Positions 17,337 through 20,036 of a stretch of DNA of 32,000 nt are shown one piece after another (the stretch's first letter is position 1; every line of letters begins with the position of its first letter). The notes beneath the pieces are model-generated. The model saw only the letters and a list, made by a program, of their open reading frames with translations. It was not told the origin of the DNA and made no database searches. Origin of the DNA: Candidatus Heimdallarchaeota archaeon (GTDB taxonomy: Archaea; Asgardarchaeota; Heimdallarchaeia; JABLTI01); the NCBI GenBank assembly GCA_030614005.1, contig JAUWKS010000018.1:1-32000 (forward strand), read 5' to 3'. The translations under genes were made by a program, and so were the position numbers.

Positions 17337-20036
17337 TTGCGAATACGAAACCGAATAATGGTTACATTCATTGTTTTGTTGATTCTCCCATCAGTAGTAA
17401 TGATTACTTTATCCAGTATTCGAATAGGTTTACTATCAACGGAGAACGCTAAAGATTCATCTGCTGCTCTTCTTGAGGAAGAGTTAGAACATCTAGACCG
17501 ATTGTCTTCAGATGCATCTCAAAAAATCAATGAGCTGTTTAACCAAATCGTTGCAGAAGTAACGATGCTTGATAATTATACTGAACGACTTTTCAATGGA
17601 GATATTCCCATTGATTCTTATCAGTCATATTGGTGGGATTCAGCGTTAGAATTCTCAGAAACAGGACGAACAATACCTGGAATTGCGTATGATGCTGACT
17701 ATGATTCTGACATTTCATTTGATACAAGTTGTTATTATATTCCGAGAGATAAATTGGATAACTTACCTGGATCAGACCCATTCAATTGGACTCCAGAATT
17801 ACAAACTCTCTTAGACAACTCTTCAAATATGGACATTGTTTTTAAAAATCTTCACGAAGCAAATCCTGATTATATTTGGATTTATGCAGCTTTTGCTGAT
17901 TCAAACTACTCGTTATTCAGAAACTATCCATACGATACAATGATTTGGACTCAAGAAGATGAAGATGGTAACCCAGTTTCAGCAGCTGATGATTGGGATC
18001 CTCTTGAACAAGATTGGTATCATAACGCTGCTACAATCGACGATGATAGCACAGCTTTTACTGCTCCATACTTTGACCCTGTAGGATTGATCCTCTCAGT
18101 GGGACGCCCAGTGAAATTTACTAATGGAACTCTCTTTGGAGTAGTAAGTGTGGATATAACTATTCAGACTATGCAACAAGATATTCTTAATCTTGATGTT
18201 AGTAAAAATGGTTATGCTTTTCTTATCGATAGCAATGGTGATACTATTACTCATCCTGATTTAGTTGATGATTTTGTATCCATTGAAAACTTGGAAATGT
18301 CTGATGCAACATCAAGTGAACAAGTTGCTTTTGCCACAATTATCAACGATATGAAGGCTGGAGGAGCTGATACTGTTGATTTCACCAAAAATGGTGACAA
18401 ATGGTATATCTCTTATCAACCAATAAATGCTGCAGGATATTCCTTAGCATTGATTGTTCCAGAAGCAGACATTGTAGAGCCAATTGAAGAATTGCGGGCT
18501 GAAATACTCCGAAGAAGCGTAAATAATATCCTGCTTTCTGTTGGATTATTGATTCTTGCACTTATCTTGATTGTCTTTGTTTCAATAAGTGTTTCACGAA
18601 GAACAGTACAACCTATAGAAGATTTCATTGATTTAACTGAAAGAATCGCAAAAGGTGATTTGTCTCGAGAACTCGATGATGACGAAACGATTCCAAGGGA
18701 AATTCGTGGATTGCATGAAGCGCTTGACGGTTTACTGACGGCCTTACGATTTGGGAATTCGGATTATTACGGTGGAAATCTTGATTTAGCTTATAACAAT
18801 TACTTGAAAGCTCTCAAACTATTTGAAACAACCAAGGATGATGTTGGTATAGGTGTTTGTTTGAATAATCTCGGAAATGTTTACCGAGAATGGGGTGAAT
18901 TAGATCAAGCCAAAGACTTCTATGCAAAAGCTATTACCGTTGCAGAAAAACTCAAAGATGACCCTGGCTTAGCTTCTAGATACAACAATTATGGTTTAAC
19001 CTTATTAGATGTTGGTAATGTAGAAGAAGCACAAAAATATCTTGAGAAAGCTTTGGCTCTAAATGAAAGCTTAGGAAATATTCGAGGAAGAGTCCTTTGT
19101 TTGAACAATCTAGGTTTAGCTTATTTCAAGAAAGGCTCAATAAAACTTGCTTATGGGTTCTATGAAGACGCATTAAAATTGGCAGAAGAGGATGATTTCC
19201 TCAGAGGATCAGCACATAGTCAACTCAATCTTGCTGTGTTCTATTTAGAACAATTTGATGTTCTCACTGCTAAAGAATACTTCAAGAAAGCATTAGAAAG
19301 CGCTCGAATGATAAATGACGTTCTCCTTGAAGAAGAAATCTTACAAAGATTCCAATTAATTGAGAACGAACTAGGTGAAGATGCGAGTGAAGAACAAATA
19401 AAGGATCTATTAGTTAAATTGCGCGGATCTGCTTCCCCACAAAAGACAGTACAATATGTCCTTGATTACAGTGGCTCAATGAGCGGTTCACGCAGCAGAG
19501 CTTCTATTAGAGGTTCTCTTGACCTTCTAAAGACAGCATTGAAAGACAAAGATTCTATTGGTATTATAACATTCTTTACTCAAAGTCGTTCTATTTTGAA
19601 TTTCACCCAAGTAAGGAATAATCGTACACACATCCAACAAGTGTTCAAACGTTTAACCAGACCGAATGGAAATACAGCTATGTGGGATGCTATAATTGAT
19701 GGTATTAAGAATTTATCTCAAGTTGGCGGAACACAAAGATGGTTAGTATTGTTAACAGATGGAGAAGATAACTCCAGTCGGAAAACTGCTAATGATGTGA
19801 AGCGCATCATTCAGAAGTTGAAATATCAATTGCATTTAGTGATTATTAGCGTCGGAAACATCGGAAACGATGAAGCGACATTAATGGACTTTACTAATAC
19901 GCTCAATGGTACTTTCATCAAAATTGATGATACAAGAAATGTTCACAAAGCGATTGAAAAAGCATTCAAGACTGTTGGACAATTGATGTCTCAGGCACAA
20001 GTATCAGTCGAAGGACTGGTATTAGATGATTTGTGA
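17337..20036 (+). CDS. Membrane receptor: TM - dCache_1 - TM - HAMP - TPR repeats - vWA
   Basis: Two TM helices flank a Cache region (DPLEQDWY, TAPYFD, GVVSVDI, GYAFLIDSNG..HPD). HAMP is QPIEDFIDLTERIAKGDL..EIRGL. TPRs include IGVCLNNLGNVY and LCLNNLGLAYF. vWA has an intact MIDAS (DYSGSM at 19464, GNTA, LTDGEDN). AGGAG RBS before the TTG. Confidence 0.9.
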   Translation: MRIRNRIMVTFIVLLILPSVVMITLSSIRIGLLSTENAKDSSAALLEEELEHLDRLSSDASQKINELFNQIVAEVTMLDNYTERLFNGDIPIDSYQSYWWDSALEFSETGRTIPGIAYDADYDSDISFDTSCYYIPRDKLDNLPGSDPFNWTPELQTLLDNSSNMDIVFKNLHEANPDYIWIYAAFADSNYSLFRNYPYDTMIWTQEDEDGNPVSAADDWDPLEQDWYHNAATIDDDSTAFTAPYFDPVGLILSVGRPVKFTNGTLFGVVSVDITIQTMQQDILNLDVSKNGYAFLIDSNGDTITHPDLVDDFVSIENLEMSDATSSEQVAFATIINDMKAGGADTVDFTKNGDKWYISYQPINAAGYSLALIVPEADIVEPIEELRAEILRRSVNNILLSVGLLILALILIVFVSISVSRRTVQPIEDFIDLTERIAKGDLSRELDDDETIPREIRGLHEALDGLLTALRFGNSDYYGGNLDLAYNNYLKALKLFETTKDDVGIGVCLNNLGNVYREWGELDQAKDFYAKAITVAEKLKDDPGLASRYNNYGLTLLDVGNVEEAQKYLEKALALNESLGNIRGRVLCLNNLGLAYFKKGSIKLAYGFYEDALKLAEEDDFLRGSAHSQLNLAVFYLEQFDVLTAKEYFKKALESARMINDVLLEEEILQRFQLIENELGEDASEEQIKDLLVKLRGSASPQKTVQYVLDYSGSMSGSRSRASIRGSLDLLKTALKDKDSIGIITFFTQSRSILNFTQVRNNRTHIQQVFKRLTRPNGNTAMWDAIIDGIKNLSQVGGTQRWLVLLTDGEDNSSRKTANDVKRIIQKLKYQLHLVIISVGNIGNDEATLMDFTNTLNGTFIKIDDTRNVHKAIEKAFKTVGQLMSQAQVSVEGLVLDDL

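Follow-up and report, generated by a model that had tools for sequence, protein, structure and literature searches.

In bacterial dCache_1 receptors such as PctA, PctB, PctC, Mlp24 and Mlp37, and in the archaeal kinase sensor mmHK1S, a double-PDC sensor is held between two transmembrane (TM) segments and is followed by a HAMP domain, and the chain goes on to a methyl-accepting chemotaxis protein (MCP) domain, a kinase, a cyclase or a phosphatase. The same sensor arrangement, with a divergent HAMP-like segment after the second TM, is present in a protein of a Candidatus Heimdallarchaeota archaeon, in which tetratricopeptide repeats (TPR) and a von Willebrand factor A (vWA) domain stand in place of those outputs. 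The gene lies at positions 17337-20036 on the forward strand of contig JAUWKS010000018.1 (assembly GCA_030614005.1), of which positions 1 to 32,000, hereafter called the window, were analyzed. We propose that its product is one of two subunits of an enzyme-free transmembrane receptor in an Asgard archaeon of the Heimdallarchaeota type, and that this subunit bears the output. The explanation as a whole, in which an amine is sensed and a cytosolic protein is recruited, is offered tentatively, at slightly below an even chance.

By both sequence and fold, the best matches of the sensor are in this group, which comprises amino-acid sensors of the PctA/PctB type, amine sensors of the dCache_1AM class such as PctD, and mmHK1S. 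Its ligand pocket retains an aromatic pair, a Tyr and an Asp that are common to the amino-acid and amine motifs (PMC8915833, PMC10589655). Unlike dCache_1AA sensors, it lacks the carboxylate-binding Arg and has an output-less paralogue as its partner.

The alpha2delta subunits of calcium channels and CACHD1 also combine dCache_1 and a vWA bearing a MIDAS (metal ion-dependent adhesion site) in one chain. Their vWA is inserted within the Cache and is extracellular (PMC8915833), whereas here it is C-terminal and cytoplasmic, past TM2, HAMP and the TPRs; protist members of the family likewise differ from alpha2delta in arrangement. The initial annotation had drawn this parallel. It stands for the Cache part, whose best Protein Data Bank (PDB) sequence matches include CACHD1 (E 6e-12) and alpha2delta-1 (E 2e-9). 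It fails for the vWA: alpha2delta is missing among the PDB sequence matches of that domain, kinship of the two vWA domains was rejected, and the nearest solved relative is Sulfolobus ArnB (8s05, E 6e-10), which Foldseek also matches.

ArnB likewise has an archaeal, cytoplasmic, MIDAS-bearing vWA, and it signals by binding its partner ArnA, an FHA/zinc-finger protein, in a regulated way (PMC6509490, PMC12852372). The zinc finger of ArnA is reminiscent of a propeller protein encoded in Asgard clusters, which also carries one. ArnB is a soluble protein under the control of Ser/Thr kinases, and it has a beta-sandwich as well as a C-terminal domain that is phosphorylated, whereas the protein described here is membrane bound and driven by Cache and HAMP. 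No beta-sandwich is found in its AlphaFold2 (AF2) model, and no FHA or kinase genes in its neighborhood.

The TPRs of LGN, Pins and AGS3 share the signature G.C.NNLGN and an Asn ladder on the concave face, and the present array is 24-26% identical to LGN over about 250 residues (Foldseek). TPRs of the LGN type bind extended peptides along this ladder. LGN is soluble and has GoLoco motifs, whereas here five repeats lie between HAMP and vWA. Sensory rhodopsin II/HtrII and other heterodimeric receptors resemble the proposed receptor in being built from two chains, only one of them with an output, and in signaling through HAMP; here, however, the two chains are Cache sensors paralogous to each other, and their output is neither enzymatic nor MCP-like. 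Finally, a Glu-containing tail is placed similarly to the integrin alpha-I Glu, which plugs a neighboring MIDAS, and to the C-terminal EEVD of Hsp70/90, which TPR clamps bind. Both comparisons are analogies only, and the tail here is disordered in monomer models.

With its input half, the protein falls among the dCache_1 receptors; its output half (TPR-vWA) is outside every characterized signaling family. The sensor is of the known dCache_1 kind, and what is new is that a Cache-HAMP receptor has a docking output free of enzymes and a co-receptor that is obligatory.

Architecture of the long receptor subunit

The open reading frame (ORF) begins with a TTG codon, encodes 899 residues in a frame free of stops, and has an N-terminus that agrees with the family consensus MxIxxRIxVTF. 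Its features, all on the forward strand, are as follows.

17337 to 20036, forward: long receptor subunit, 899 amino acids, comprising TM, dCache_1, TM, HAMP, five TPRs, vWA and a conserved tail

17343 to 17411, forward: TM1, residues 3-25, following a basic N-terminus (sequence, hydropathy, AF2 helix 3-86)

17424 to 18476, forward: extracellular dCache_1 sensor, residues ~30-380 (Pfam; PDB sequence matches to PctB, PctA, CACHD1 and mmHK1S; Foldseek)

17997 to 18155, forward: ligand-pocket motif D221, Q225, W227, Y228, Y245, D273 (alignment to PctB, family columns, PMC8915833, PMC10589655)

18513 to 18581, forward: TM2, residues 393-415 (alignment, hydropathy)

18591 to 18746, forward: divergent HAMP (P426, GDLS, AS2 REIRGLHEALDGLLTAL) running into the invariant RFGN junction (Pfam below cut-off, alignment)

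18747 to 19388, forward: TPR array of about five LGN-like repeats with invariant N474, N488, N511, N514 and N551 (Pfam, AF2, Foldseek)

19443 to 19985, forward: cytoplasmic vWA with MIDAS residues D710/S712/S714, T780 and D808 (Pfam, alignment, ArnB 8s05)

19986 to 20033, forward: conserved C-terminal tail AQVSVEGLVLDDL (family alignment; disordered in the model)

Pfam models recognize dCache_1 at residues 208-371 (55.5 bits, cut-off 45), MCP-like_PDC_1 at residues 169-281, TPR_12/1/8/10 at residues 468-660 (up to 90 bits), and VWA (PF00092) at residues 708-872 (44.5 bits, cut-off 23.8). The dCache_1 model (PF02743) is matched by all 35 of the family members compared. Immediately after TM2 is a P...GDLS / EI(G/R)xLHxAL pattern, which suits HAMP in both position and form. 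HAMP is matched at E<=0.01 in 12 of the 35 members, and reaches 32.2 bits in a Cache-less relative. At E<=0.01, neither Pfam nor NCBIfam detects a HisKA, HATPase, MCPsignal, GGDEF, EAL, PP2C or cyclase domain in the protein.

Two hydrophobic segments (residues 3-25 and 393-415 in a hydropathy scan) flank the Cache, and basic residues are located before TM1 and after TM2, on the HAMP side. Because of these two segments and the basic residues, the Cache is predicted to be extracellular and the HAMP-TPR-vWA part cytoplasmic. An AF2 model, calculated with 35 homologues as input, has a mean predicted local distance difference test (pLDDT) score of 80 and the expected folds: a long stalk helix, a double-PDC sensor, TM2, 11-12 TPR helices and a classical vWA fold. 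The HAMP region is of low confidence in this monomer model, and the last 15 residues are disordered. Foldseek matches the sensor, with its long stalk helix and two PDC modules, to PctA, PscC, Mlp24 and mmHK1S.

The MIDAS residues D710-x-S712-x-S714, T780 and D808 are invariant among 35 homologues whose identity falls to 31%. Also invariant in the family are the RFGN junction, which leads from HAMP into the first TPR, and several Asn residues of the TPRs. Residues 504-514 read GVCLNNLGN, an instance of the G.C.NNxGN motif. Apart from a Thorarchaeota cluster belonging to this family, a shape search of the ESM Atlas matched only bacterial vWA proteins of a generic kind, and a feature search of that atlas with the C-terminal half gave scores below 0.8 and no lead.

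These data confirm that the ORF encodes a membrane sensor whose cytoplasmic side is enzyme free and made of protein-docking domains. The initial annotation had read the gene as a kinase-free dCache-HAMP-TPR-vWA receptor with an intact MIDAS, an outward Cache and an inward vWA. These elements are borne out, the HAMP as a divergent one that scores below threshold in this protein, and the layout recurs throughout the family.

A probable short co-receptor subunit

The gene that follows the long receptor encodes a second sensor.

20049 to 21530, forward: short subunit, 493 amino acids, comprising TM, dCache_1, TM and HAMP with no output domain (Pfam, alignment, conserved adjacency)

The short subunit is a paralogue of the long one, with 28% identity to residues 3-446, and its gene starts 12 nucleotides downstream of the long gene. 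The order of long gene then short gene is found in the window and in all seven homologue loci drawn from distinct Asgard clades. The pairing is also present in a Lokiarchaeum-like closed genome and a genome of family f20 (L016 and L017). Among the loci inspected, an output-less dCache-HAMP paralogue almost always follows the long receptor. In one closed genome (G367), the long gene is 180 kb away from a pair made of the short gene and a decarboxylase gene. An archaeal variant (L029:9001-13507) has a non-Cache N-terminal region of about 410 amino acids before HAMP-TPR-vWA, and this gene is followed by one for a 586-amino-acid HAMP protein. Because this variant keeps the long and short arrangement with a non-Cache sensor, the pairing outlives a change of sensor.

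The strongest evidence that the two subunits act jointly is their fusion in protists. Long protist relatives, about 1,350-2,130 residues in length, have four TM segments and a pair of sensor modules, the second of which is followed by TPR-vWA. Hidden Markov models (HMMs) were purpose-built for the short subunit and for the sensor of the long subunit. The first protist module scores 28-58 bits with the short-subunit HMM and 3-30 bits with the long-sensor HMM, whereas the second scores 72-93 bits with the long-sensor HMM and 27-70 bits with the short-subunit HMM. The joining of both sensors in one protist chain, a Rosetta-stone fusion, supports a two-subunit receptor. HAMP domains require a dimer. 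The long and short chains are likely to form a heterodimer, whose HAMP bundle would bear exactly one TPR-vWA arm.

Several loci have additional features near the pair. In one clade, the short subunit has C-terminal HEAT repeats and a zinc-ribbon-like stretch (L015:10752-12764), and a gene for a Ras/Roc-type small GTPase comes after it (L015:12872-13471). In another locus, a gene for an Arf/Ras-like GTPase is located just past the decarboxylase gene (L013:14965-15624).

Genes linked to the receptor pair

Downstream of the short subunit is a decarboxylase gene.

21567 to 23390, forward: SpeA-like, cytoplasmic, pyridoxal phosphate (PLP)-dependent arginine decarboxylase, 607 amino acids, no signal peptide (NCBIfam PRK05354, linkage)

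A SpeA-like gene is found within 0-6 kb of the receptor in all seven homologue loci. By hand comparison of coordinates, 70 genomes have both genes on one contig with no more than about 7 kb between them. Most other genomes with both have them on different, mostly short contigs of fragmented assemblies. In families in which receptor and decarboxylase are patchy, both occur in the same genomes (G056, G058, G064 and G075 of family f6; G013 and G014 of family f3). Families f19 and f20 have the receptor and no SpeA-like gene. No pyruvoyl arginine decarboxylase was found in the source genome, which is 90% complete, so the SpeA-like enzyme is probably the only agmatine route of this genome.

A second type of gene is found near the receptor in Hodarchaeales, Thor/Hermod, f19 and f20. 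It encodes a cytosolic beta-propeller with a C-terminal zinc finger, and it also adjoins a Cache-less, 578-amino-acid TM-HAMP-TPR-vWA form of the receptor. Pairwise comparison shows these copies to be homologues, at E-values from 1e-16 to 1e-26.

These neighbors suggest what the receptor may control. It is possible, although rather doubtful, that the controlled process is polyamine/agmatine homeostasis, in which the receptor would act directly on the decarboxylase in the manner of antizyme, or through an adaptor. In other Asgard lineages, the propeller/zinc-finger protein of the same cluster would be a candidate for this adaptor. Alternatively, the receptor might not be a metabolic regulator at all, and instead be a membrane-anchored scaffold or adaptor for a cellular machine. 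Its TPR-vWA part would then dock coat-like, adaptor-like or ubiquitin-system proteins, the propeller/zinc-finger protein being one example, with the decarboxylase as a lineage-specific addition. The propeller/zinc-finger gene beside the receptor pair and beside the Cache-less form agrees with such a role, as do the two families with a receptor and no SpeA-like gene and the small GTPase genes near the receptor in two loci. Moreover, ArnB, the nearest solved relative of the vWA, has been likened to the Sec23/24 core (PMC12852372), and precomputed Pfam matches on propeller orthologues include BBS2_Mid and the IFT122 propeller, with one source naming a FYVE zinc-finger protein. However, those Pfam matches are faint, the source genome has no propeller orthologue at the receptor and no cytosolic form was found in it, and linkage to the decarboxylase is far more common in the lineages closest to the window. 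We therefore regard a scaffold as unlikely, and as the best placed of the alternatives to an amine-sensing regulator.

An acidic C-terminal tail of the decarboxylase was considered as a ligand for the TPRs or the MIDAS. This candidate was rejected: in six orthologues, the tail past a DDPY-like motif shows no conservation.

In a closed Asgard genome that has no receptor (G015, C1:1149642-1154380), two SpeA-like genes occur in tandem, one of them within an 886-amino-acid open frame that may be a fusion.

Two further genes flank the cluster in the window.

23584 to 25026, forward: second fold-III decarboxylase-like gene (LysA/ODC-like), 480 amino acids (Pfam, NCBIfam)

16944 to 17309, forward: AbrB/MazE-like small protein, 121 amino acids (Pfam, NCBIfam)

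The LysA/ODC-like gene begins 193 nucleotides after the SpeA-like gene and has the same position in a Heimdall locus (L009). Only within this genus is it part of the cluster, and it is absent from more distant loci. The AbrB/MazE-like gene, 27 nucleotides upstream of the receptor, encodes two AbrB/MazE-like stretches. An upstream counterpart (124 amino acids) is found only in the same close relative, L009, and the protein is possibly a DNA-binding output limited to this genus.

The sensor pocket and its ligand

The pocket was read by alignment to PctB and from family columns, with motifs taken from two previous studies (PMC8915833, PMC10589655). The position of PctA R126, the carboxylate-binding Arg of the dCache_1AA motif YxxxxRxWY (Gumerov et al. 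2022), is Q225 in the long subunit and D in the short subunit. The equivalents of W128/Y129, Y144 and D173 are retained as W227, Y228, Y245 and D273, of which the last three are invariant in the family. The W/Y pair, the Tyr and the Asp are common to amino-acid and amine sensors and contact the amino group of the ligand (PMC8915833, PMC10589655). Mutation at the position of the carboxylate-binding Arg identifies it as key for amino-acid binding (PMC8915833). Among archaea, the dCache_1AM motif, which in full also comprises an upstream insertion with an Arg-Asp pair and a cation-pi aromatic residue, has been described in one phylum only, the Halobacteriota (Cerna-Vargas et al. 2023, PMC10589655).

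The decarboxylase-linked clades are Heimdall, Thor/Hermod and Hod/Odin. Their long subunits have Q, E, F or Y in place of the Arg, and their short partners have D, E or Q at this position. Both subunits lack the Arg in the window and in all eight decarboxylase-linked loci inspected. The Arg is retained in basal Asgard clades and in the eukaryotic clade, and a Lokiarchaeum-like pair has it in both subunits and is not accompanied by a SpeA-like gene.

Loss of the Arg suggests, at the level of sequence, a switch from amino acids to decarboxylated amines, for instance agmatine or polyamines. Because the Tyr and Asp that contact the amino group are kept and the carboxylate-binding Arg is lost, an amine is a reasonable candidate for the ligand, and we give even odds that both pockets bind a decarboxylated amine, most likely agmatine or a polyamine. 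If the sensor instead detected an amino acid, perhaps arginine itself, or some small molecule that is not an amine, perhaps a peptide, the adjacent decarboxylase would have a different meaning, in arginine catabolism or pH homeostasis and not in amine feedback. The closest solved sensors (PctA, PctB, Mlp24 and Mlp37) do bind amino acids, and basal and eukaryotic family members have the full amino-acid motif. However, the absence of the Arg from both subunits here and in the eight decarboxylase-linked loci, at a position described as key for amino-acid binding (PMC8915833), makes such a sensor improbable, somewhat more so than the scaffold discussed above.

Signal output

In the amine-sensing receptor that we propose, binding of the ligand would move the HAMP bundle, and the rigid RFGN junction would transmit this movement to the arm formed by TPR and vWA. 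The arm would then change what is bound by the TPR groove, the MIDAS and the Glu tail, so that a cytosolic protein is recruited or released with no catalysis. Taken as a whole, we consider this signaling step probable. The tail comprises a hydrophobic-x-hydrophobic-Glu motif after the last vWA helix, which is found from Asgard archaea to protists, and in protist members it is the end of the protein. By analogy, its Glu could serve as a pseudo-ligand for the MIDAS or the TPR groove.

Many prokaryotic cytosolic vWA proteins act with MoxR ATPases. The vWA might accordingly adapt the receptor to an AAA+ ATPase of the MoxR type, on the pattern of RavA-ViaA, CbbQ-CbbO and BchI-BchD/ChlD, so that the receptor would target chaperone-like remodeling. 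Partners of this type had been suggested for the gene beforehand. The genome does hold three AAA_3 (MoxR) genes, and some family members are automatically named 'Mg-chelatase subunit ChlD'. However, all three genes are on other contigs, an AAA+ gene adjoining the receptor is absent from all 11 loci inspected, and ChlD is a weak sequence match (E 3e-4). The suggestion therefore finds no support in linkage, and we judge a MoxR adaptor very unlikely. Because enzyme domains are absent and the MoxR ATPases are unlinked, recruitment, which the initial annotation had also proposed, would be the most economical reading of the output.

Several points count against an amine-sensing, recruiting receptor. 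The ligand, the partner and the heterodimer are predictions. The HAMP match of the long subunit (PF00672, residues 419-448) scores 17.5 bits, below the Pfam cut-off of 25. The decarboxylase scores 344 bits, and because this falls just short of the NCBIfam PRK05354 cut-off of 369, its substrate is an inferred one. Adjacency of the genes could mean co-regulation without a physical or regulatory tie. The correlation between loss of the Arg and presence of the decarboxylase appears to reflect few independent events, and family f20 is a counter-example, in which the Arg is lost and the SpeA-like gene is also absent. The comparison with dCache_1AM was confined to positions shared with the amino-acid motif. 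Lastly, the propeller partner is not near the receptor in the window, and our query of the source genome returned only secreted or membrane-anchored PQQ/FG-GAP-like propellers and no cytosolic one.

Integrity and distribution of the family

A misassembly at 18700-18800 had been raised as a concern for the fusion of HAMP to TPR. Logan contigs span this region with zero differences (18246-18857, 18666-18925 and 18732-18966). They come from cold-seep and marine-sediment metagenomes of different studies, so the junction is independently supported. An assembly chimera or a decaying, functionless gene, for which nothing speaks except that earlier caution, can be dismissed almost entirely, given the bridged junction, the same architecture in more than 100 Asgard assemblies, the invariant MIDAS and pocket residues, and the lack of stops.

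Approximately 60 full-length homologues of the long receptor were collected, with identities from 94% down to 31%. The family profile matches 165 of 399 Asgard genomes, with full-length matches across nine GTDB families, and the closest named relative is a Heimdallarchaeota metagenome-assembled genome (92% identity over the C-terminal half). A search of 185,579 prokaryotic species gave 299 matches confirmed by tblastn. Among the best 80 of these 299, all are labeled as Asgard (Heimdall-, Thor-, Hermod-, Hod-, Kari- and Sigynarchaeota, and Promethearchaeota) except one with the label 'Bathyarchaeia' (70% identity). As far as tested, the family is therefore limited to Asgard archaea among prokaryotes. 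Two members, P0005 (76% identity) and L035 (70%), have the public labels Zixibacteria and Bathyarchaeia, respectively, and are probably misbinned Heimdall contigs.

In Pfam, NCBIfam, PDB and the literature, no characterized family of known output turned up that would have overturned the reading of the initial annotation. No paper describing this architecture was found in a literature search made mostly without subscription journals.

Eukaryotic relatives

A search of 1.84 billion cluster representatives with the vWA profile produced 78 matches at E<=1e-30. According to our own domain HMMs, most of the long matches contain Cache, TM/HAMP, TPR and vWA parts. Members named in EukProt are from Trimastix PCT, Stygiella incarcerata, Platysulcus tardus and the chrysophytes Spumella vulgaris and Mallomonas annulata, and there are three unnamed entries. 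Along its entire length, the Trimastix PCT protein (900 amino acids) shares 28% identity with a Lokiarchaeum-like receptor (E 8e-92). One member is encoded on a 45-kb contig amid genes with the eukaryote-specific domains ARL2_Bind_BART, OST3_OST6, HU-CCDC81_euk and RWD, which implies that it is a genuine eukaryotic gene. The proteins on the eukaryotic side retain DYSGS and LTDGxD, and most also retain the amino-acid motif DPRCRxWY.

In trees of the TPR-vWA part, a single branch separates all rows with Asgard names from all rows with eukaryotic labels, most of the rows on the Asgard side having been assigned by clade and not by source name. The support for this branch is 99 in FastTree (135 rows) and 97/94 in IQ-TREE under LG+G4 (53 rows). 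An unlabeled group near the eukaryotic side has at most 31% identity to anything in the 399 Asgard genomes. Because the trees are unrooted, they fit both vertical descent and ancient transfer.

When the TPR-vWA model was compared by using Foldseek, three of the top five clusters of the AlphaFold database matched over TPR and vWA together. Judged by their accession series, these are presumably Stentor, Paramecium and Tetrahymena proteins. The initial annotation had suggested a similar TM-TPR-vWA layout, with a G.C.NNxGN first TPR, in ciliate families. That eukaryotic link is upheld in a broader form, as full-architecture homologues in other protists.

The Cache-HAMP-TPR-vWA pair might be an ancient, enzyme-free receptor that eukaryotes inherited from their Asgard ancestor, or that was exchanged with it before the eukaryotic supergroups diverged. 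This idea is coupled to that of a heterodimeric, ligand-gated scaffold that recruits adaptors and imposes antizyme-like amine feedback on the Asgard arginine decarboxylase, and the combination as a whole is unlikely. If true, it would alter the published view, in which every eukaryotic dCache_1 has a vWA inserted in the Cache and the domain is of bacterial origin.

Two environmental contigs contain unusual relatives. On a 354-kb JGI contig (L028), a receptor homologue (P0220) is located amid mostly orphan ORFs and genes for U-box and zinc-finger proteins; this contig looks like that of a giant virus or a compact eukaryote. On a Logan contig (L026:102-6506), a PARP domain is joined to a double-sensor TPR-vWA receptor in a protein of 2134 amino acids (P0207).

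Other genes of the window

Elsewhere in the window, the forward strand at 7240-8754 encodes a 504-amino-acid chain in which a dihydrodipicolinate synthase (DHDPS)-like aldolase is fused to a formaldehyde-activating enzyme (Fae) domain. At 9014-10298 on the forward strand, two overlapping ORFs both match family-2 glycosyltransferase models, and look like a single gene split by a frameshift. A calcineurin-like phosphoesterase of 688 amino acids is encoded on the forward strand at 3725-5791; for this family, descent of the eukaryotic enzymes from archaeal relatives has been discussed (PMC7016017).

Significance

In prokaryotes, a transmembrane sensor nearly always terminates in either an enzyme or an MCP domain, whereas the conserved and widespread family described here has docking modules instead, together with an output-less co-receptor. 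Archaea require agmatine both to modify tRNA-Ile and for polyamines. The linkage to the decarboxylase suggests a route by which Asgard archaea might couple the external supply of polyamines or agmatine to the synthesis of agmatine. The receptor family also bears on the origin of the pairing of Cache and vWA in the alpha2delta subunits of calcium channels. Because its range among prokaryotes is, as tested, confined to Asgard archaea, and because full-length relatives occur in at least three protist supergroups, the family is a candidate for a signaling logic shared by Asgard archaea and eukaryotes.

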